Part shown: positions 910 through 62,352 of the stretch, piece after piece | How positions within the stretch are numbered: the first letter of the stretch is position 1 | Layout: each line of letters starts with the position of its first letter | From: Akkermansiaceae bacterium | Lineage (GTDB): Bacteria; Verrucomicrobiota; Verrucomicrobiia; Verrucomicrobiales; DEV007 | Direction of reading: 5' to 3' | Assembly: GCA_024233085.1 (NCBI GenBank) | Contig: JACKQC010000020.1 | Location: 35,884-99,883 of the forward strand | Length of the DNA: 64,000 nucleotides | Program-made: the position numbers and the translations under genes | Notes under the pieces: generated by a model | What the model saw: the letters and a program-made list of their open reading frames with translations, nothing else | What the model was told of the DNA's origin: nothing | The model's database searches: none

Positions 910-943
910 GCGAACCTCCCCCATTTTGAGTCGAAGACCTTAT

Positions 944-1075
944 GGACAACGACCGGATCGACCGCGAGCAGCGCCGGATCAAGAACAACAGAGATCCGCC
1001 TCGCCGCGGATGGGGGCGAATGTTGAGCTTGAAGGAGAAAACACTGGAAGCCCGATCGACCGGCGCCTACAGTCA
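944..1075 (+). pseudogene. Relic fragment of a PhoD-like phosphatase gene
   Basis: nt 944..1000 align by eye to 2182..2237 of the intact gene 1717..3177, with GACGACCGGATCGACCGCGAGCAGC identical. Peptide DNDRIDREQRRIKNN matches [16 protein letters not shown] weaker continuation follows (LKEK...). There is no full-length ORF. Confidence 0.5.
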
Positions 1076-1079
1076 CGAA

Positions 1080-1289
1080 ATGACCACTCAAGAGATCAAG
1101 GATCTTCCGATAGACCAAAAATTCCAGATCATGGAAGCGATTTGGGAAGATCTTCGTGAGCGAATCGAGCGGATCGAGATTCCCCAGCAATACAAGGATC
1201 TCCTGGATGAGCGGCGCGCGAGGGTTGCGAGCGGAGAGGCTCGCCTCCTCGACTGGGATTCTGTGAAATCGACCATTGGGAGACCGTGA
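1080..1289 (+). CDS. Type II antitoxin, 'putative addiction module component' type
   Basis: Internal ATG of ORF 942..1289 gives MTTQEIKDLPIDQKFQIMEAIWEDL...ARLLDWDSVK. This has the layout of the small antitoxins paired with ParE/RelE toxins. Its stop overlaps the toxin start (GTGA at 1286..1289). Confidence 0.6.
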   Translation: MTTQEIKDLPIDQKFQIMEAIWEDLRERIERIEIPQQYKDLLDERRARVASGEARLLDWDSVKSTIGRP

Positions 1290-1597
1290 TTCGAGTTCAG
1301 ATTTCCGAGGAGGCGCTGCGGGATTTGAACGAAGGTTTTCTGTTCTACGAGCGCCAGGAACCAGGCCTTGGCGATTACTTCGTCACCTGCCTTCGTTCGG
1401 ATATCGAGCGATTGAAGTTCGCGGCGGGAACCCACCGGATTGTCCACGAGGATTACCAACATGTTGTAAGCAAAATTTTCCCGTACGGTGTGTTCTACAC
1501 GCTCGATTCGAAGGCCGACCTCGCGATCGTCTGGGCGGTCATCGATCTCAGGCGCGATCCTCGATGGATTCGAGATCACCTGGAAAGGCAGCCCTAA
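1286..1597 (+). CDS. RelE/ParE-family type II toxin
   Basis: 103 aa. MIRVQISEEALRDLNEGFLFYE...YGVFYTLDSKADLAIVWAVIDLRRDP matches the ParE/RelE 'plasmid stabilisation' pattern. The GTG start overlaps the antitoxin stop. Confidence 0.65.
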   Translation: MIRVQISEEALRDLNEGFLFYERQEPGLGDYFVTCLRSDIERLKFAAGTHRIVHEDYQHVVSKIFPYGVFYTLDSKADLAIVWAVIDLRRDPRWIRDHLERQP

Positions 1598-5496: not shown

Positions 5497-5540
5497 TTCA
5501 ACAGGGTAGGGTCGGCGACCCAACAGGGTTGAGTCGGCGC
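5497..5540. repeat. REP-like hairpin cluster (2 units)
   Basis: Intergenic TTCAACAGGGTAGGGTC and GACCCAACAGGGTTGAGTC. Family consensus is GACCCAAC-AGG/CCT-GTTGGGTC (8-bp stem, 3-nt loop). Confidence 0.7.
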
Positions 5541-7638: not shown

Positions 7639-7786
7639 GGTGGGGCGAAGCGTCCCCGCTGAGCCGTCGCTTGCCTGGGTGGTTTGCGACTCGGTCCCGC
7701 CCCCGCTCTCCGGTGTCGTGGGCATTTTTTTGGAGGAAGTCCGCGCGGGACACCTCGACGGCTCGGCCGGGACGCCTCGCCCCACC
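7639..7786. repeat. IR-bounded intergenic element, short copy (family of 54968..55268 and 57325..57652)
   Basis: Left IR 7639..7669 is GGTGGGGCGAAGCGTCCCCGCTGAGCCGTCG. Right IR 7757..7786 is CGACGGCTCGGCCGGGACGCCTCGCCCCACC. About 28/31 positions are complementary. The element lies between divergent genes. Confidence 0.65.
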
Positions 7787-10087: not shown

Positions 10088-11050
10088 ATGCCGTCCGCCA
10101 TCGTCCGAGGAGTCCTGCGCCTGATCGTCCGGTTGATCCTGACCGCGGTGGTCTTGCTGGCGGCGGTGCAGCTCTCGCTGATGCTGGCGCGCGGGCAGGG
10201 CGGCGGCGAGGCGGCCGGGGCCGACGCGCTCGAGGTGGCGCGGGCGATCCCGGCGGGCGAGGTGCCGCCCGGGCTCTCGATTCTGGAGAACGGCGGCGGC
10301 AACGCCAAACCGGCGAGCTGGATCGACGAGGCCCTCGCGCGCGCGCCCGGGTCGCTGCGGATTTTCGGTCTGGCGGTGTTGGCCGCCCTGGCGACCGGTC
10401 CCGCCCTGGGCACGCTGGCCGGGCGCCACCGCCGCCTCGGCTTGGCGCTGGAGGGACTGCTGAGCCCGCTGTTCGCCGCCGTGTGGCTGCCGGCTTTCTG
10501 GGGAGCCTGTCTCGTCGCCTGGGTCCAGGTCGCGTGGTGGGGGCATCCCGGCTTCGCCGACGCGCCGGGGGCGATCAACGACGCCCGCGGCCTCGAGCCC
10601 TGGTGGCGCGCGCTGCCGCCGGCCGTCCTCGTGACGCTGAGCATGCTGGGCTGGCAGGTCCGCGCCGTGTCCGGCGGGCTGAAGCGCGCCGCCCGGGCCG
10701 GGCACGTCCGCGCCGCCCACGCCCAGGGGCTGGCGGGAGCGGGACTGTTTTACCGCCATGTCTTTCGCAACGCCCTCGAGGCACCGGCCCGCTGCCTCGA
10801 CCGTTCCCTGCCCGCCATGCTCGGCACGCAGATCCTCGTCGAGTGGGTGCTGCGCTTTCCCGGCCTCGGGACGCTGCTGGTCGACTCGGCGCGCGAGGCG
10901 CAGTTTCCCGGCATGCTCGTCGCGGGCGCCCTGCTGGCCGCGCCGTCGCCGGTCTTTCGGTTTCTCGGCGAAATGCTCCACGCCGCCACCGACCTGCGCG
11001 CGCGCCGGCCGGCCGCCCTCGCCCCCGACCCTGTTGGCTCCCTGACCTAA
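10088..11050 (+). CDS. ABC transporter permease (DppB/OppB-like)
   Basis: ATG at 10088 in the frame of ORF 8252..11050. Multiple hydrophobic spans. Operon context supports the call. The last ~8 codons and the stop lie inside REP units. Confidence 0.65.
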   Translation: MPSAIVRGVLRLIVRLILTAVVLLAAVQLSLMLARGQGGGEAAGADALEVARAIPAGEVPPGLSILENGGGNAKPASWIDEALARAPGSLRIFGLAVLAALATGPALGTLAGRHRRLGLALEGLLSPLFAAVWLPAFWGACLVAWVQVAWWGHPGFADAPGAINDARGLEPWWRALPPAVLVTLSMLGWQVRAVSGGLKRAARAGHVRAAHAQGLAGAGLFYRHVFRNALEAPARCLDRSLPAMLGTQILVEWVLRFPGLGTLLVDSAREAQFPGMLVAGALLAAPSPVFRFLGEMLHAATDLRARRPAALAPDPVGSLT

Positions 11051-11086
11051 CCCTGTTGGGTCCGCCACTCAACCCTGTTCGATCCG
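11027..11086. repeat. REP-like hairpin cluster (3 units)
   Basis: GACCCTGTTGGCTC, CTAACCCTGTTGGGTC and CTCAACCCTGTTCGATC, between the two permease genes. Confidence 0.7.
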
Positions 11087-40580: not shown

Positions 40581-40645
40581 CTCAACAGGGTTTGCCCGCC
40601 GACCCAACAGGGTTGAGTCAGTGACCCAACCCTGTTGGGTGTCCG
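40581..40645. repeat. REP-like hairpin cluster (3 units)
   Basis: CTCAACAGGGTTTGCCC, GACCCAACAGGGTTGAGTC and GACCCAACCCTGTTGGGTG. Confidence 0.7.
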
Positions 40646-41286: not shown

Positions 41287-41880
41287 TCAGTTGCGGGCCA
41301 GGATCACGCGGCGGAGGCGCCCGACACCGCGCCGGATGCGGGCTTTGACGGTGCCGATCGGTTCGCCGAGACGGCGGGCGATTTCGTCCTGGGAAAGCCC
41401 GTCAAAATAAGCCATCTCGATCGCCTGGCGCTGGATGTCGGTGAGTTCGATAATCGCGTTCCACACCGTCTCGCACTGCTCGCGGCGCATCGCGAGGGCG
41501 CGGCCGTCAAGATGGGGTTTCTGGGGATCGGCGGTTTCGCCGGACTCTTCCAGGGAGGAGCGCAGGCGATGGCGCCGCCGATTGGCGCGGAGGCGATCGA
41601 TGGCGCGGTTTCTCGCCAGAGAAGTCAGCCAAGTCACGGGGCGTCCCCGCGAGGCCTCGTATAGTCCGGCTTTCCGCCAGAGGGCGAAAAGCGTTTCCTG
41701 AAGGACTTCTTCCGTGTCTTCCGCCTGATTGAGAACCTGAAAGATCGCGGAGTAAAGATGTCGGGAATAACGCTCGTAGAGCCGGCGAAAGCTGTCGCGA
41801 TTGCCGTTGGCGATGCCGCGCAACAGCAACGTGTCGCTTTCGTCATCGAAAGCGGAGGATTCAGGCGTGGAGGCATTCAT
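41287..41880 (-). CDS. ECF-type RNA polymerase sigma-70 family factor
   Basis: Internal ATG of ORF 41287..42147. Region 2: FRRLYERYSRHLYSAIFQVL...EEVLQETLFALWRK. Region 4: LTDIQRQAIEMAYFDGLSQDEIARRLGEPIGTVKARIRRG. Confidence 0.8.
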   Translation of the reverse strand: MNASTPESSAFDDESDTLLLRGIANGNRDSFRRLYERYSRHLYSAIFQVLNQAEDTEEVLQETLFALWRKAGLYEASRGRPVTWLTSLARNRAIDRLRANRRRHRLRSSLEESGETADPQKPHLDGRALAMRREQCETVWNAIIELTDIQRQAIEMAYFDGLSQDEIARRLGEPIGTVKARIRRGVGRLRRVILARN

Positions 41881-53975: not shown

Positions 53976-54533
53976 TCAGATTTCCCGTGGAGTAAAGTAT
54001 ATAGCCTCTACGGGAGCAAACCTCTCTCGTCCTCGAAGCAACCGCACGGCATACACCAACGATCGATGGCTTCCATCACCGTGGCTGAGGGTGTACGTCG
54101 AACCCGGATCCAGGCTTTGGTGCTCATTTTTGAGGTCTGTTACAACGATCGGTGAAAGGCGGGATACATCAAAGTTCTCAGCAACAGGAACGCAAGGTCG
54201 AAACCATTTTGGTTTGTGCAATTGCTCATCTAGAGAAGGCTCCGAAGCCAATCTTTCAAAAGTATAGCCGTTTTCGCGAATTCGTTCAGCCACTGATCTC
54301 AGAGAATGGCTCCCATGTTTTGGAACGATGATTTCATTTTCTCGATGAATTGGCTGAACTGTAATCTCGAGGAATTCATCGATCTTTTCGAATTGAAGCC
54401 ACTCCAATTTCCGTGGCGGTGACAGCCTTTCCTTGATGCCTTTCCCGAAATTGCGTAGCGCCCTCAATTCCCCCATACAGAGAAGCCGTTTAATCTCTTC
54501 ATACGTTGTCACACGACGCTTCATATAATTCAC
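53976..54533 (-). CDS. Hypothetical protein with C-terminal ParB/Srx-like motif (low-GC island)
   Basis: 185 aa. Markedly lower GC than the flanks. SPIVVTDL...STYTLSHGDGSHRSLVYAV resembles the ParB N-terminal/sulfiredoxin-fold 'DG-x-HR' box. A purine-rich stretch precedes the ATG. Confidence 0.5.
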   Translation of the reverse strand: MNYMKRRVTTYEEIKRLLCMGELRALRNFGKGIKERLSPPRKLEWLQFEKIDEFLEITVQPIHRENEIIVPKHGSHSLRSVAERIRENGYTFERLASEPSLDEQLHKPKWFRPCVPVAENFDVSRLSPIVVTDLKNEHQSLDPGSTYTLSHGDGSHRSLVYAVRLLRGRERFAPVEAIYFTPREI

Positions 54534-54595
54534 TTCTTTCTTTCGGCGGGCGATTCAATAGTGATGCAACAACCGATTCACTTGGAACGTAACGG

Positions 54596-54766
54596 TTACT
54601 CAAAAGTCGAGAAAACTTCCATCGTAACTTGCTCGCCATTTTCACCCGTGAATTTATAACTCAACGACGCGCGACCCGTAAGGAAATTTTTTCCATCGGC
54701 CGACCGCGGAAGACGAGATGAAAGCGCTCGAAAATCCCCGTTTTCCTCCCGTGCAATTTCAGGCAT
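54596..54766 (-). CDS. Small hypothetical protein (low-GC island)
   Basis: Internal ATG of ORF 54596..54859 (the upstream codons are REP-encoded). 56 aa, no motif. Lies 62 nt upstream of the 185-aa gene on the same strand. Confidence 0.35.
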   Translation of the reverse strand: MPEIAREENGDFRALSSRLPRSADGKNFLTGRASLSYKFTGENGEQVTMEVFSTFE

Positions 54767-54791
54767 CTCCTTTCGCTGGATCTGGCGGATT

Positions 54792-54858
54792 GATTCAACC
54801 CTGTTTGGTCCCCAATCCAACAGGGTCAGGTCCGGGACCCAACAGGGTTGGGTCGACA
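54792..54858. repeat. REP-like hairpin cluster (3 units)
   Basis: TTCAACCCTGTTTGGTC, ATCCAACAGGGTCAGGTC and GACCCAACAGGGTTGGGTC. The last is a perfect 8-bp stem. Confidence 0.7.
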
Positions 54859-54967
54859 TGGGGGCCGGAAGGGGGCAAATCCCGGTTACTCATGGCCGTG
54901 CCGTCGGGCGCGTCGTTCGCGAGGAGGGGCAGTCTCCCCATTCGCGTCAACTTGACGAAATCGAAGC

Positions 54968-55268
54968 GCTCAAAGGACCGATCCAGTGCCGGCTTCCGCC
55001 AACGGTGGGGAAAAGGCGCACGGCGGCAGCCGGGTGGGGCGAGGCGTCCCGGCCGAGCCGTCGCGATGCCCCGCCGCGTCCGTCCCGCCCGATCCCGCCC
55101 TCGAAACCATCCGCGAAAGAGAAACCGGGAGAGTCCGGGCTCCAACGGATGGCCAGAGGACGTCCGACGCTTTCGGGCCTCACGACGGCTCGGCCGGGAC
55201 GCCTCGCCCCACCCACCCATCCATCGCCGCGGAATCGTGGCTCCGTGATTTTGTCTCATCCTCCCGCG
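54968..55268. repeat. IR-bounded intergenic unit, copy A (candidate invertible element)
   Basis: Perfect 31-32-bp inverted repeats at 55033..55063 (GGTGGGGCGAGGCGTCCCGGCCGAGCCGTCG) and 55183..55213. The 119-bp core lies between them. The outer flanks are colinear with copy B (57325..57652). Confidence 0.75.
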
Positions 55269-55451
55269 TTCAGGGCGACGCCGATGGAGGCGGTTTCCAA
55301 CCGCCCGCAGAGCCAGCGCAGGCGCTTGGAAAGTGTATCTCTTGGATTTCCACCGCCCTCCGATGCGCCAAACTCGCTCCAGCCCCGTTTTTGGCGGAAA
55401 GGACGGTTTTGGATCGGAAATCGGCGCCGAACTTCGGGAAAAATCGATTTT

Positions 55452-55795
55452 CCCACAGGAAAAACCATTTTTCCCATGGGGTTTGGCGTTGTTCCCATGG
55501 GGTTTGGCGTTGTTCCCATGGGGTTTGGCGTTGTTCCCATGGGGTTTGGCGCTGTTCCCATGGGGTTTGGCGCTGTTCCCATGGGGTTTGGCGCTGTTCC
55601 CATGGGGTTTGGCGTTGTTCCCATGGGGTTTGGAGCAATTCCCATGGGTAGCGCCGCAATTCCCATGGGGTTTGGAGCAATTCCCATGGGGTTTGCTGAA
55701 AAACCCACGGGGTTTGAGGCCATTCCCATCGGGTTTGCGGCAAAACCCGCGGGGTCGGCGGCTTTTCCCGGAGGGTTGACCGTCATTCCTCCCGG
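55452..55795. repeat. 21-bp tandem array (~16 units) with phased CCCATGGG palindromes
   Basis: Perfect CCCATGGG occurs at 55473+21n for n=0..10. Degenerate cores occur at 55452, 55704, 55725, 55746, 55767 and 55788. The core TTCCCATGGGGTTTGG is conserved and the 8-nt spacer varies. Confidence 0.85.
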
Positions 55796-55861
55796 ATCAC
55801 GGGCTTTTCCCGCGGGGACTGCGGGCGATCGTGGCCGGAATTCGGCCGCCCGAGCGGCGAT

Positions 55862-56371
55862 TCAGGCGGGCGGAAGGCCGCCCACGAGCCGGCGCAGGAA
55901 AATGCCGGCGCCGAGACAGGAAAAGCTGACGAAGGCGCCGACAACCATGGGCAGCCAGAGCTGCTTGTCGGAATAGATCTCGGCGCTCTTCGGGCTGCCG
56001 GGCACGTGGATGACGCGGACGCTGTCGCCCGCCTTCAATTCGTGGCCGAAGGTGCTGGTGGTCACGAAGTCGAAGGGCTCGGCGCCCTCGGGGGCGCAGT
56101 GCACGTGGAGTTCGTGGGTGATGCTGGCCCGGCTCCGCTGGCCGTAACTGTCCATCGATTCGCCCGGTTTCCGGGAGCCGCCGCCGCCGTAGGTGACCCG
56201 GGTGGTGACTTCGGTCACCGCGCCATCGATCACCTGACCGAGGACGACGAGGCGAACCTGGTTCCAGAGCAGGGCGCCGAGGAAAAAAACGCCGGCCGCG
56301 AGCAGAATCCAGCCGAGCGCGGAGAGGCAGCCGCGATTTTTCTGAAGGGCGTGGTTCGAGTTCACAGGCAA
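55862..56371 (-). CDS. DUF3592-like membrane protein
   Basis: 169 aa. N-terminal TM (LSALGWILLAAGVFFLGALLW), a beta-rich middle and a C-terminal TM, which is the DUF3592 layout as remembered. Confidence 0.55.
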   Translation of the reverse strand: MPVNSNHALQKNRGCLSALGWILLAAGVFFLGALLWNQVRLVVLGQVIDGAVTEVTTRVTYGGGGSRKPGESMDSYGQRSRASITHELHVHCAPEGAEPFDFVTTSTFGHELKAGDSVRVIHVPGSPKSAEIYSDKQLWLPMVVGAFVSFSCLGAGIFLRRLVGGLPPA

Positions 56372-56402
56372 ATCGATCGGGGGATCGGGAAACCGGGCGA
56401 AT

Positions 56403-57218
56403 TCACACGCCGCAGCCGATTTCGAGCACCTTCTCGGCGCCCTTCGGCCCGAGTTTCCAGAGGGTGGTGGCGCCGCCCTCGTAATACTGAGAGTGCAGGA
56501 CGATCTCCATGACGCCGTCGCCGTCGAGGTCGAGCAGGCCGCCGACGTGGTGGACGTTGGGGGCGTTGAACTCCTGGGCTTTCTCGTAAAACTCGCCGTC
56601 GAGGATCTGGGTGACGACGCGCCCGTCCACGACGCGGCGCAGGGCGACGAAGGAATAATCGCCGGGGCCGGAGGCGGTCGGCGCGCTGCCCTCGCCGTCG
56701 GCGGTGGGGTAATGGGTGGCGGCCAGCAGCACCTCCTCCTCGCCGTCGCCGTCGAGATCGACCCGGAGATGCTGGGTGATGCGGACGTCGGGCTTGCGGA
56801 TGCCCTGGCCGGCGAGGATTTCGGCCACGGCTTTCACGTAAACTTCCACGGTGTTGTCGGCGATCTTCACGGGGCGCGGCAGCGGGTTCCACGGGGCGGC
56901 GACGGCGATGGCGGGGGTTTCGTCCGGCTCGGTGTCGAGGGCGGCGATCCAGACGTCGGGGCAGACATCGACGTCGGGCCCCGCGCGGCGGGCCGTCACG
57001 CGGCCGGCTTCGCCTTTCAGGGTGAAAAGGCGGAAGGCGGCGCCGGGCGCGATCGTTTTTCCGGCTTGCTCGCTGGTGAGCCATTTCCCGTCGCGAAAAC
57101 CGCCGATCACATAGCGGTAGGGCAGCTCGAGGAAGGTGGCCGGCTCGGCGGCGGCGGAGAATCCGGCGGCGGCGGCGATCAGGAGCGCGGTCGGGCCAAA
57201 AGATCGGAGGCGGTGCAT
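56403..57218 (-). CDS. Secreted hypothetical protein with FG-GAP/VCBS-like DxDGDG motifs
   Basis: Internal ATG of ORF 56403..57275 gives the signal MHRLRSFGPTALLIAAAAGFSAAA. Motifs RVDLDGDGEEEV and LLDLDGDGVMEIV. Confidence 0.55.
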   Translation of the reverse strand: MHRLRSFGPTALLIAAAAGFSAAAEPATFLELPYRYVIGGFRDGKWLTSEQAGKTIAPGAAFRLFTLKGEAGRVTARRAGPDVDVCPDVWIAALDTEPDETPAIAVAAPWNPLPRPVKIADNTVEVYVKAVAEILAGQGIRKPDVRITQHLRVDLDGDGEEEVLLAATHYPTADGEGSAPTASGPGDYSFVALRRVVDGRVVTQILDGEFYEKAQEFNAPNVHHVGGLLDLDGDGVMEIVLHSQYYEGGATTLWKLGPKGAEKVLEIGCGV

Positions 57219-57324
57219 CGCGTGCGGGGGGGGAAGAGGCTCGGGAAATGTCGTCCGCGCGGCGAAGAATCCCATCGAAAACTTCGGGCGAGGTTCAGAT
57301 AGAGTGTGAGGGAAGCCGGGGGGG

Positions 57325-57652
57325 GCTCAAAGGGTCGATCCCGTGTCGGCTCCCGCCAAGGGCCGAGGATAACGCGAACGGCGTCAGCCGGGTGGGGCGA
57401 GGCGTCCCTGCCGAGGCGTCGTGATGCCAGATCGCATCGACATTTTTCGGCCATTCGACTGAGCCCTGGCTTTTGGTCTTTTTTCCTTCGCGGCTGATTT
57501 CACGGACGGGATTGGGCGGGACGAACGTGGCGGGGCCTCGCGACGGCTCGACAGGGACGTTTGCCTTCGGCGATCTCCGCTGAGTTTCGGTTCGCCCCAC
57601 CACTCCATCGCTCCGGAATCGTGGTCCCGCCATTTTGGCTCGTCCTCCGGCG
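57325..57652. repeat. IR-bounded intergenic unit, copy B (core inverted relative to copy A; right IR interrupted)
   Basis: Left IR at 57391..57421. The right IR is split into 57541..57559 and 57591..57601 by a ~31-nt insertion. The core is the reverse complement of the copy A core, while the flanks are colinear. Confidence 0.7.
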
Positions 57653-57705
57653 CTCAATTGCCGCGAATGGGCGAAATGGCCACGCCAAGTTGGCCAGCCC
57701 GAGGA

Positions 57706-59181
57706 TCACGGCAGCTCGTCGAGGGCCTCCAGGAGCGGGCGATAGGCGAAGTCGTTGAGCAGGGCGATGGCGCCGCGGTCGCTCGGATCGGCGGCGACCT
57801 CGCTGTGGATGCCCAGCGCGTTGTGCATGGCCTCGACGGCGGCTTCCAGATTCTCGGCCCAGGCGTCGTCGTCCTTGGCGGCGCGGGCGATGGCGGCGTT
57901 CCGGGCGGCCTCGACGGCGGTGAGGTAGTGCAGGGCGAAGGTGTAGCGCTTCGCGTGGTGGAGGATCCAGGGCCGGGCGCCGTCGCGGGCGCGGGTGTTG
58001 GCGCGATACATTTCGCCGACGGCCTTGCCGTAGAGTTCCTTCCCTTTGGCCCACCATTCGGGGGCGGGCTCGGCGCCGGCGTAGTGTTCCATGAACATCT
58101 TCGGATCGGGCACGGCGAAGGCGGAGTCCGCCTTTTCGATGAGGGCGGAAACTTCGGCGACGGCGGCGAAACCGAGCGCGAGGGTTTCCGCGACGCCCTC
58201 GCCGCAGATGGGGGTGGCGAGGTCGCGCAGGGCGCTCTCGGGGGTGACGGAGTCGTCCCAGGCGGCGCGGGAGAGGTAGTGAAGCTCGGGATTGAAATCG
58301 CCGACGATGGCCGCCTCGACGGCGAAATCTCCCGCGGGCAAGACGACCGGCGCCGTTTGCGGCAGGAGACCGCCCTGTGGCTGGCCGAGGGAAATCGTGG
58401 CCGCCGCGGCCGGGGCCGGGTCGCTCGTCAGGCCGAGGGCGCCGGCGGCGTCACGAATGCCGGCGAGCCATTTTTCCGCGGCGCCGGGGTCGCCCTCGAG
58501 ATCGGGATTGGCGAAAGACTTCGCTCCGCCGAAAACGGAGCGGCCGGCGATGTCGCCGGTGACGTCGATGGGTTCGAAGGCGATGGGCTCGTCCTTTCCG
58601 GGAAGGATGACGGCGTTGAAGGCGAGCTTGGCGAGCTGTCGCAGCAGTATTTCGTGATCGGCGACGGTCCAGGCGGCCTGGCTGGCGGGGCCGTTCGCCC
58701 GGACGCGCCAGGCGCGGGTGGCGTGGCGCGGGGTCCGGACAATGTCGAAGCCGTCGAGGGTGAAGGCGGGCTTTTCCCTGGGCGGGAAGTCGCCGCCGGT
58801 GAGATAGCGCATCCCGTTGGCGTAACCGTATTCATAGACGGCCCAGAGGGTCGCGACGGGGCTGTTCCCGGCGATGACGAGACCCGAGGGGGTTGACTTG
58901 ACGACATGACCCTGTTGGCCCAGATCGGCGGTCAGGGCGCCCGCTGACTGGGCCGCGCCCAGCCGGATCACGCGGGTCGCGCCCTCCGGCGGGTTGCCCT
59001 TCGCTATCGTGACCCTGGCGTCGAAGAGCGTCGTCAGCAGGCCGGTCAATTCCTTCGCGGCATGAGTTTCCAGCGGGGCGGCGTTCGGATCCGTCACGAG
59101 GGTGACGGAGGGGCCGTCGGCGGCCGAGACGGAGGAAAGAATCGCGGCAAGGCAAAGGGTGGAGAAAAGGGTCGTTTTCAT
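57706..59181 (-). CDS. Secreted hypothetical protein
   Basis: ATG at 59181 in the frame of ORF 57706..60066 gives the signal MKTTLFSTLCLAAILSSVSAA. 491 aa, no family recognised. Confidence 0.5.
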   Translation of the reverse strand: MKTTLFSTLCLAAILSSVSAADGPSVTLVTDPNAAPLETHAAKELTGLLTTLFDARVTIAKGNPPEGATRVIRLGAAQSAGALTADLGQQGHVVKSTPSGLVIAGNSPVATLWAVYEYGYANGMRYLTGGDFPPREKPAFTLDGFDIVRTPRHATRAWRVRANGPASQAAWTVADHEILLRQLAKLAFNAVILPGKDEPIAFEPIDVTGDIAGRSVFGGAKSFANPDLEGDPGAAEKWLAGIRDAAGALGLTSDPAPAAAATISLGQPQGGLLPQTAPVVLPAGDFAVEAAIVGDFNPELHYLSRAAWDDSVTPESALRDLATPICGEGVAETLALGFAAVAEVSALIEKADSAFAVPDPKMFMEHYAGAEPAPEWWAKGKELYGKAVGEMYRANTRARDGARPWILHHAKRYTFALHYLTAVEAARNAAIARAAKDDDAWAENLEAAVEAMHNALGIHSEVAADPSDRGAIALLNDFAYRPLLEALDELP

Positions 59182-60912: not shown

Positions 60913-61112
60913 GAGAGCGGGAGAGCGGGAGAGCGGGAGAGCGGGAGAGCGGGAGAGCGGGAGAGCGGGAGAGCGGGAGAGCGGGAGAGCGGGAGAGCGG
61001 GAGAGCGGGAGAGCGGGAGAGCGGGAGAGCGGGAGAGCGGGAGAGCGGGAGAGCGGGAGAGCGGGAGAGCGGGAGAGCGGGAGAGCGGGAGAGCGGGAGA
61101 GCGGGAGAGCGG
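60913..61112. repeat. Perfect 8-bp microsatellite (GAGAGCGG)x25
   Basis: Counted directly: 25 uninterrupted units. Intergenic, between the propeller gene start and the IS200-like element. Confidence 0.9.
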
Positions 61113-61296
61113 GCGGGTGCCGGCAGGGAGATTCGATCCCGGAGGCATCGCCCCTGATCCCGGAGGGATCGCCCATGAATAGCCGGGAGTCGAAGACTCC
61201 CGGAACTCCCGGAACCACCGGTTCGCCCGGAAAACCCCGGAGGGGTTGACCATGGGGATGTCGCGCCGACCGAGCCGACCGAACTCAGCGAGACCA

Positions 61297-61782
61297 TCAC
61301 GGAAGAAATTCCGGCTTCCACTCCAAATGAGCCGCTTCGACAAGGCGTTTCAATTCGGCCACAAAATCCTCGCGATCGGACATCGCGCCGCCCGCGTGGT
61401 GAGCTTCCTGGTTTTTGATGTAGTCAATCAGGGCCGGACGCGCCTCGGCCGCGACAGTGAAGGCGCCATATCCCTCCTGCCAGAAATCGAAGCGTGGAAA
61501 CACCCCTTTGCCTTTGATCCAGGCGGAGGACGCGGTCTTGATCTCCTTCACCAGATCCGCCAGCGCAATGGTGGGATGGAGAGAAGTGAGGATGTGGAGG
61601 TGATCTTCAATGCCGCCGATCCGGTAGAGGTGACATTGCCGATTTTTGAGAATCCCCCAGATGAATCGATAGAGGTCGTCGCGCCGGGATTTTTCGAGGA
61701 CGGGAGCCCGGTGTTTGGCGCCAAAGACGATGTGATAGGTGATGTCCGTGTAGGTGGCATGGGAAGAGGATAGGACAATCAC
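61297..61782 (-). CDS. IS200-like Y1 (HUH) transposase / REP-associated tyrosine transposase-like protein
   Basis: ORF 61297..61869, with a GTG at 61782 proposed as the start. YHIVFGAKHRAPVL, HUH motif DHLHIL, WQEGYGAFTV, and the catalytic-Tyr region LIDYIKNQEAHH. Confidence 0.75.
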   Translation of the reverse strand: MIVLSSSHATYTDITYHIVFGAKHRAPVLEKSRRDDLYRFIWGILKNRQCHLYRIGGIEDHLHILTSLHPTIALADLVKEIKTASSAWIKGKGVFPRFDFWQEGYGAFTVAAEARPALIDYIKNQEAHHAGGAMSDREDFVAELKRLVEAAHLEWKPEFLP

Positions 61783-61924
61783 AGCGCAATGGGCAACCCC
61801 AGGTTGTTTTTGGGTCGGACGCGGCCCCGGTCGATGACCCCGGTATTCCGGGTGATCCTCCGGGATCAATTTGGTGCCAGGCTTTTGGTTTTGAGTTTGA
61901 GGATTGCGGATGGCGAGATCTGCC

Positions 61925-62066
61925 CGGCTTTGGCATTGGCTTGGCTGTGGCTGGCTGGGCTGTGGCTTGGCCTGTTTGCTGCTGGGCTGTGGTGTAGCTT
62001 GTTGGCTGTGGCTGTGGCTGTGGCTTTGGCTTTGGCTTTGGCTTTGGCTTTGGCTTTGGCTTTGGG
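61925..62066. repeat. Hexanucleotide microsatellite (TGGCTG/TGGCTT)n
   Basis: About 11 clean units at 62002..62066, preceded by degenerate units from ~61925. Lies upstream of the transposase start, inside the element. Confidence 0.8.
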
Positions 62067-62352
62067 CCTGTGCGGCTCAATGTGGCTCTCAGAGACTTGG
62101 TCGGGCTCGGTTCGATTGTCCCATTCCGCCCCTCGGAAAACCGATCTCGGAGGGATCGCCCATGAATAGCCGGGAGTCGAAGACTCCCGGAACGAAGACT
62201 CCCGGAACGAAGACTCCCGGAACTCCCGGAACTACCGGTTCGCCCGGAAAACCCCGGAGGGGTTGCCCATTGGGGATGTCGCGCCCTTTCCATGGCGTGG
62301 ATGCGCGGACTTTTCTCGCCAAATCCCGCCCAACTGCGGCCATCTTTTTTTC

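Follow-up and report, generated by a model that had tools for sequence, protein, structure and literature searches.

The arrangement of two paralogous intergenic units, A and B, in a 64-kb stretch of DNA from an Akkermansiaceae bacterium (the window in the following) raises the question of whether they represent two states of a working gene switch or the outcome of a past rearrangement. Both units carry outer flanks in the same direction, and the segment enclosed by inverted repeats points one way in A and the other way in B. A sequence-only reading had interpreted this architecture as an invertible promoter or phase-variation switch of the fimS or hin type, with a MITE whose interior flips as a fallback. 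On the evidence presented here, A and B look like an old rearrangement of repeat DNA and not like a working gene switch.

The geometry of the two units was established by pairwise alignment (Table 1). The left flanks are colinear (54968–55070 versus 57325–57428, 84.6% identity over 104 nt), as are the right flanks (55212–55272 versus 57596–57656, 80.3% over 61 nt), and the middle is inverted with its arms included (A 55045–55214 versus B 57559–57390 on the opposite strand, 77.5% over 173 nt, E = 2e-32). When the cores are aligned alone, the reverse-complement alignment gives 87 identical positions out of 122 and a score of 102.5, far above the same-strand score of 13.5 and those of 500 shuffles (mean −1.8, sd 6.9, maximum 19.5); the cores are therefore true reverse complements of each other and not merely palindromic. 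A rigorous alignment, which the sequence-only reading had named as its own check, thus upholds the two paralogous units with colinear flanks and the core reverse-complemented at about three-quarters identity, and reveals neither cores in the same orientation nor flanks out of line. The postulated perfect inverted repeats of A were likewise recovered as exact matches on opposite strands. Of the proposed unit limits the starts were retained, whereas the ends shift from 55268 and 57652 to 55272 and 57656. The 31-mer GGTGGGGCGAGGCGTCCCGGCCGAGCCGTCG occurs with 0 mismatches at both arms of A, with 2 mismatches at the left arm of B and again at both arms of a third element, copy C, where no match is expected by chance. 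Divergence between A and B amounts to 15–25% across flanks, arms and spacer alike. The two arms of A are capable of extended pairing over 49 nt at 88%, and unit A is predicted to fold with a minimum free energy of −196.5 kcal/mol on the minus strand (z = −6.5) and of −177.1 kcal/mol on the plus strand (z = −7.4), the flanks pairing mutually in the minus-strand fold and thereby lengthening the hairpin. Unit B is decayed and folds no better than shuffled sequence (z = −0.46).

Table 1. Positions of the repeat units and their parts in the window.
Feature	Position	Strand	Description and basis
Unit A	54968..55272	.	Complete unit made up of the REP dimer and both flanks; homologous to B directly at the ends and inversely in the middle
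Degenerate REP in left flank of A	55005..55031	+	In tandem with the left arm; 3' part CGGCGGCAGCCGG; 21/28 matches
A left arm	55033..55063	+	REP stem-loop with GTGG head, GGCGAGGC / GTCCCG / GCCGAGCC; exact match, covariation over 206 monomers
A spacer (core)	55064..55182	.	119 nt, reverse complement of the B spacer; alignment
A right arm	55183..55213	-	REP, 31/31 same as left arm; exact match
Unit B	57325..57656	.	Diverged, decayed paralogue of A; begins 50 nt past the upstream minus-strand stop (57706)
B left arm	57391..57421	+	REP, 2 mismatches to the A arm; pattern match
B spacer	57422..57540	.	119 nt, inverse of the A spacer; alignment
B right arm	57541..57602	-	Hybrid, disrupted REP; outer half GGCGAACC and inner half GTCGAGCC split by filler
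Copy C	7639..7786	.	REP dimer, the third one in head-out arrangement; its arms (7639-7669, 7756-7786) show 3 differences

The arms of A and B are REP stem-loops of the GTAG-type superfamily. Each consists of an unpaired GT(G/A)G head followed by the stem-loop GGCGAxyC-GTCCCN-Gy'x'GAGCC, which contains a tandem G·A within its 8-position stem. Among 206 monomers the two variable stem positions form Watson-Crick pairs in 197 and 198 cases, respectively (GG/CC 116, GC/GC 31, AG/CT 23 and AC/GT 20), the central G·A/A·G is invariant, and the head reads GTGG in 164, GTAG in 31 and GCAG in 3. To collect the family, a 25-nt derivative of the arm was searched for in a single genome of each species; the loci listed stem from genomes other than that of the window, and the numbers of monomers and dimers refer to them. 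It is present in more than 109 loci and, among the matches listed, in Kiritimatiellia, Verrucomicrobiota (including Akkermansiaceae and Opitutaceae) and Lentisphaerota MAGs. What these listed loci have in common with the window is the arm alone, usually followed by a variable spacer and an imperfect inverted copy, and they include at least 58 head-out dimers with spacers of 5–133 nt. The arms are generic dispersed REPs and not locus-specific recombination sites. The window itself harbours five intact REPs and a broken one, arranged in three dimers which are all intergenic; the spacer of copy C is unrelated to those of A and B, and the dimer lies between divergent genes and is devoid of the A/B flanks. 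A further partial arm match at 41482–41506 reads as coding sequence and was discarded as probably due to chance.

In Di Nocera et al. (2013; PMC3733652), GTAG-tagged REPs are described as extragenic elements with an unpaired GT(A/G)G head beside a short G+C-rich stem-loop, with covarying stem sub-families and, in some families, non-complementary GA residues in the stem; they are mostly organized as head-out (HH) dimers 20–100 bp apart and occasionally in clusters. The A/B repeats resemble them in each of these respects, and GTGG-headed repeats are reported from the verrucomicrobium Opitutus terrae. However, the REP-encoded peptides listed there for the O. terrae families differ from all frames of the A/B REP, such that its stem and loop are unmatched on a comparison made by peptides only, and the A/B family spans three PVC phyla among the loci listed. 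A literature search for the REP sequence yielded no paper containing it, and in the literature searched we found no description of a REP family that combines a head of GTGG or GTAG with a GTCCCN loop and a stem containing the tandem G·A. Rfam, applied to the whole 64-kb window at gathering thresholds and to 54700–57900 at E ≤ 10, returned one tRNA and noise only.

Because their arms conform to the REP definition and are paired head-outwards, A, B and C are REP dimers which resemble REPINs and BIMEs. Bertels and Rainey reportedly defined REPINs in 2011 as REP doublets that form hairpins. The likeness to REPINs and the BIMEs of E. coli comprises the two inverted REPs with a spacer folding into one long hairpin, the mosaic build with conserved linker or flank motifs, and the multi-copy occurrence. 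In contrast to REPINs, no cognate RAYT was found beside A/B-type REPs in the window or in the loci listed, and the 119-nt spacer of A and B is at the long end. To our knowledge, REPINs have not been described in which copies with shared flanks differ in spacer orientation. In the Kiritimatiellae MAG RGIG6903, at least 25 near-identical REP units were counted; each contains a spacer of constant length (41 nt) between conserved flanks of about 70 nt, and many of them are located at contig ends. In PVC MAGs, this REP family is among the main reasons why assemblies are fragmented.

The flanks of A and B also carry traces of this repeat family. The degenerate REP in the left flank of A scores 21/28 against an intact REP, a value reached by none of 1000 shuffles, and the motif CGGCGGCAGCCGG is found again in units of Akkermansiaceae UBA2367, in five of which CGGCGG(C/T)AGCCGG adjoins the REP head. 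Since it abuts REP heads there as well, the left-flank motif is part of a mosaic common to genera of the family. The arm next to the motif is of the AC/GT type in all five UBA2367 units and of the GG/CC type in A and B, and the AC-type half-arm of B sits at the end far from the motif. Due to this swap of the flank-adjacent arm type relative to UBA2367, whole modules together with their arms occur both ways round relative to the flank. The UBA2367 spacers, which were compared with those of A and B for a canonical orientation, display no detectable homology to them. In the right arm of B, the outer half-stem belongs to another stem type (AC), the inner half is one change away from the GG type, and a unique filler of about 32 nt (57560–57591) interrupts the arm exactly at the hybrid junction, as though left behind by an illegitimate exchange. 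Polymorphisms near the arms, read directly from the A and B sequences, give conflicting breakpoint signals. A and B are the only copies found with these flanks: metagenome scans for the left junction and for the right flank gave 0 matches each, and a translated ORF spanning A had no match among 5.8 billion proteins.

On balance, we consider it fairly probable that A and B are diverged composite REP elements of the REPIN/BIME kind whose module was flipped once and which represent a fixed rearrangement without a programmed ON/OFF switch. In such an element the two REPs, pointing head-outwards around the 119-nt spacer, would form one long hairpin or cruciform, and the conserved flanks would belong to the same mosaic, the left one being a decayed third REP. 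The mosaic unit might have been duplicated, whereupon the REP-spacer-REP module was presumably turned round once in one copy while the outer flanks stayed colinear. The likeliest route would be an exchange between the inverted arms, be it by recombination, by gene conversion or by template switching during replication. Such an arm-to-arm exchange is favoured because A and B share homologous flanks on the left as well as on the right, because the arms of A are identical over 31/31 positions, and because the right arm of B is a hybrid with the filler exactly at its junction. Among the REP loci listed, an arm identity like that of A is shared by only 3 of 58 dimers, and it suggests homogenisation between the arms. 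The sequence data show the REP nature of the arms, the distribution of the family, the inversion and the decay of B, while the mechanism and timing of the flip as well as the absence of a function are inferred. As turning the module leaves the long stem unchanged, the flip was probably neutral for any role exerted by the hairpin, be it in DNA structure or in transcript-end stabilisation. A loop lying both ways round between unchanged arms and unchanged outer sequence is also known from the flip and flop forms of the AAV ITR and from plastid inverted-repeat isomers; these interconvert continually within a population via replication or recombination, whereas the two states of A and B sit at two different and diverged loci. 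Points against a fixed state are the small number of copies with these flanks (two), the conflicting breakpoint signals near the arms, the perfect 31–33-bp arms of A, which would equally suit an ongoing inversion, the reported richness of Verrucomicrobiota in invertons (PMC13343947), and the restriction of the promoter scan to consensus sequences of the sigma-70 type.

According to the opposing scenario, the REP arms, at least those of A, serve as recombination sites at which a distant recombinase or a Y1 enzyme reversibly flips the 119-nt segment, thereby altering minus-strand expression of a low-GC cassette in the case of A and of an FG-GAP/DUF3592-like pair in the case of B. We regard a working inverton of this type as highly improbable, although several observations are in line with it: the opposite states in two paralogues imply that the module was inverted at least once, the arms of A are perfect over 31 nt, both units lie upstream of genes, one of which encodes a secreted FG-GAP protein, dozens of invertons of about 190 bp exist in Akkermansia (PMC11892184, PMC13343947), and other assemblies fail to cross A. 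Its difficulties begin with the arms, which are generic REPs with spacers down to 5 nt at other loci, and with the broken arm of B. A scan of 39 ORFs of the window against Pfam detected no tyrosine or serine recombinase; the earlier statement that the window encodes no recombinase is correct in this sense, but overlooks a Y1 (HUH) transposase at 61297–61869. No sigma-70-like site was detected in either core when 54500–57800 was scanned with consensus sequences of the sigma-70 type, as distinct from PVC promoter types. The spacers are diverged by about 25%, like the flanks, and thus give no sign of an extra constraint. In fimS- and hin-type switches, inverted repeats bracket a short segment upstream of genes, as in A and B, but these repeats are short and locus-specific, the gene of a tyrosine or serine recombinase is adjacent, and the segment contains a promoter; none of these three attributes was found at A and B.

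Invertons of Akkermansia offer a closer comparison. They are characterized by repeats of about 17 bp with the motif CGGATT..AATCCG and by a shared promoter motif (PMC13343947, PMC11892184), as documented for Akkermansia muciniphila by the motif of Jiang et al. 2019, group 138 (PMC11892184) and the cps1 inverton (PMC13343947). They occur in the same family as A and B and are similarly intergenic, multi-copy, located upstream of surface-related genes and about 180–190 bp long overall, with inverted repeats around a segment of about 120–160 bp. However, the shared promoter motif is lacking in A and B and the repeat motif is absent in and near A, B and C, the window containing elsewhere one match with 2 mismatches where 5.2 are expected. 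Moreover, both orientations of the Akkermansia invertons are proven by reads, whereas the orientations of A and B were read from assembled sequence.

Other assemblies provide information on the orientation of the modules. GCA_020439965.1, which belongs to the same species (99.875% identity over 4014 nt), spans B with zero differences inside it and in the same orientation, such that B has a single orientation in two assemblies. Three same-species assemblies (99.8–99.9% identical) terminate at 54860–54956, i.e. 12–108 bp left of A and 77–173 bp outside its left arm. Ends outside the arm and not at it are not the pattern expected of an inversion bubble. A Logan contig stops at 57408, inside the left arm of B, at the variable loop base. 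Candidate causes of the stops near A and in the B arm are further identical copies, hairpin-related coverage loss or heterogeneity. Among the listed loci of other genomes, 123 of 124 pairs of REP dimers sharing flank and spacer homology are concordant in orientation, and the single discordant pair looks like a spurious artefact of low similarity. Beyond the geometry of repeat, spacer and repeat, nothing supports a programmed switch, and the fimS/hin-type interpretation is unsupported in view of the generic arms, the absence of an invertase gene from the ORFs scanned and of a sigma-70-like site from the cores, the broken arm and the constant orientation of B, and the absent Akkermansia repeat motif. 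The MITE-like fallback fares better in one respect, since an interior flip between inverted repeats is close to the evidence and inverted terminal arms are present, but a target-site duplication is lacking: the bases abutting the dimer differ (in A, ...CAGCCG before and CACCCA... after it), and so do those abutting the whole unit. It is likewise highly improbable that identical-arm REP dimers such as A constitute an unrecognised natural class of invertons, the head-out loop of which flips reversibly by arm-to-arm exchange or by means of a Y1/HUH transposase cutting the GTGG heads; A and B would then be two frozen states of such a switch, placed before a low-GC cassette of foreign origin and an operon for a secreted protein, respectively.

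The main rival to arm-to-arm exchange is transposase re-insertion, which appears possible but rather doubtful. Here, REP-spacer-REP would be a mobile REPIN which a Y1 transposase of the RAYT type inserted, or excised and re-inserted, in opposite direction beside the same preferred target of decayed REP and flank; the colinear flanks would correspondingly be target or older mosaic sequence and not parts of a duplicated unit that was later inverted. This proposal gains from the swapped arm type next to the flank motif (AC/GT in 5/5 UBA2367 units, GG/CC in A and B), from copy C as a dimer without the A/B flanks, and from the view that REP dimers are mobilised as units, a REPIN concept cited in PMC3733652. 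The genome also contains a RAYT-like Y1 transposase lineage. The window gene at 61297–61869 (minus strand) matches PF01797 with an E-value of 3.8e-23; it exceeds the cut-off of the IS200 equivalog profile (68.9 bits versus 55) and stays below that of the RAYT profile (24 bits versus 80). It is flanked by repeats of about 100 nt at 61156–61257 and 62143–62274, which are direct copies in the window and consist of (A)ATAG plus a 9-bp hairpin, CCGGGAGTC-GAA-GACTCCCGG (CCGGGRGTC hairpin). Relatives whose Y1 protein is 73–80% identical carry the repeat as inverted copies on both sides of the gene (L118:1885–2635; L120:1868–2779), an arrangement of gene and own REP that is RAYT-like as judged by sequence. 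This repeat is a REP distinct from the GTGG REP of A and B, and the window Y1 transposase was consequently rejected as their mobiliser. The homology of about 65 and 60 nt on the two sides further implies that re-insertion would require two insertions at exactly the same paralogous point. No target-site duplication is visible in the directly read sequence, no Y1 gene is present within the REP loci listed (at least 109), neither these loci nor the 64-kb window contain a cognate RAYT flanked by A/B-type REPs, and the A and B spacers share homology with one another but with no further copy. As an observation apart, a perfect (GAGAGCGG)x25 microsatellite and a (GGCTGT/GGCTTT)n array lie on either side of the Y1 gene (60913–61113 and 61926–62065).

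A and B might alternatively be structured RNA or cis-elements on the minus-strand transcript, which would stabilise 3' ends or provide a site for RNase III or for other processing between genes, the loop orientation being irrelevant to such a function. This idea, which we hold to be improbable, is compatible with the position of both units between co-directional minus-strand genes, 50 nt separating B from the stop of the preceding 491-aa gene and 107 nt from the FG-GAP gene (start 57218) that follows it, and with the folding of A far better than shuffles on both strands; GT pairing and RNA-level roles have, in addition, been proposed for REPs (PMC3733652). It is weakened by the lack of an Rfam match, by the failure of B to fold better than shuffles, by the placement of C between divergent genes and by the absence of a U-tract after the stem in the directly read sequence. 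The element is, moreover, missing from the orthologous operon of relatives: where the FG-GAP protein is 72% identical, the operon is tight, with an upstream gap of 36 bp and no REP, which makes B a lineage-specific insertion and not a conserved regulatory region. A role as RNA would, in any case, concern function and leave the flip unexplained.

A fixed rearrangement of REP elements, which we prefer to these alternatives, has consequences beyond this locus. It removes a false lead, as such inverted repeats are widespread in PVC genomes and could be flagged by inverton predictors that work without reads. It documents a REP family common to Kiritimatiellia, Verrucomicrobiota and Lentisphaerota that fragments their assemblies. 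The A/B pair provides a clean natural case of a module between inverted REPs having been turned round while the surrounding mosaic stayed. The flip thereby bears on the evolution of REP clusters and, if it were still ongoing, would link REPs to phase variation.

The gene layout of the region agrees with the sequence-only reading, which placed A 5' of a low-GC minus-strand operon and B 5' of a secreted-protein/DUF3592 pair; gene calls from other assemblies likewise place the starts at 54766 and 57218. H7A52_15700 [Akkermansiaceae bacterium] has 100% identity to the FG-GAP protein encoded downstream of B. Unit A is situated between a 21-bp tandem array and the low-GC two-gene cassette (start 54766). 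The cassette (53976–54766, minus strand) has a GC content of 47.5% compared with 64.7% for the window and was probably acquired horizontally. It encodes proteins of 56 and 182 aa, for neither of which a Pfam match was obtained; three further assemblies of the species encode the 182-aa protein in identical form. The tandem array (55403–55780) adjoins A between the unit and the stop of the DUF3592-like gene and comprises about 11–18 copies of the consensus TTCCCATGGGGTTTGGCGCTG, which holds the palindrome CCCATGGG; one same-species Logan contig terminates within the array. A second dispersed palindrome, GACCCAACAGGGTTGGGTC (CCAACAGGGT / ACCCTGTTGG), is found at 54796–54858, with two to three copies just upstream of the cassette start codon, and also at 5520, 11028–11060, 40604–40640 and 58909, where it forms pairs at three intergenic sites; an operator or a further family of repeats is conceivable. 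Finally, a type II toxin-antitoxin pair at 942–1597 (plus strand) combines an Unstab_antitox antitoxin with a weak match to a ParE toxin and has a GC content below that of its surroundings.
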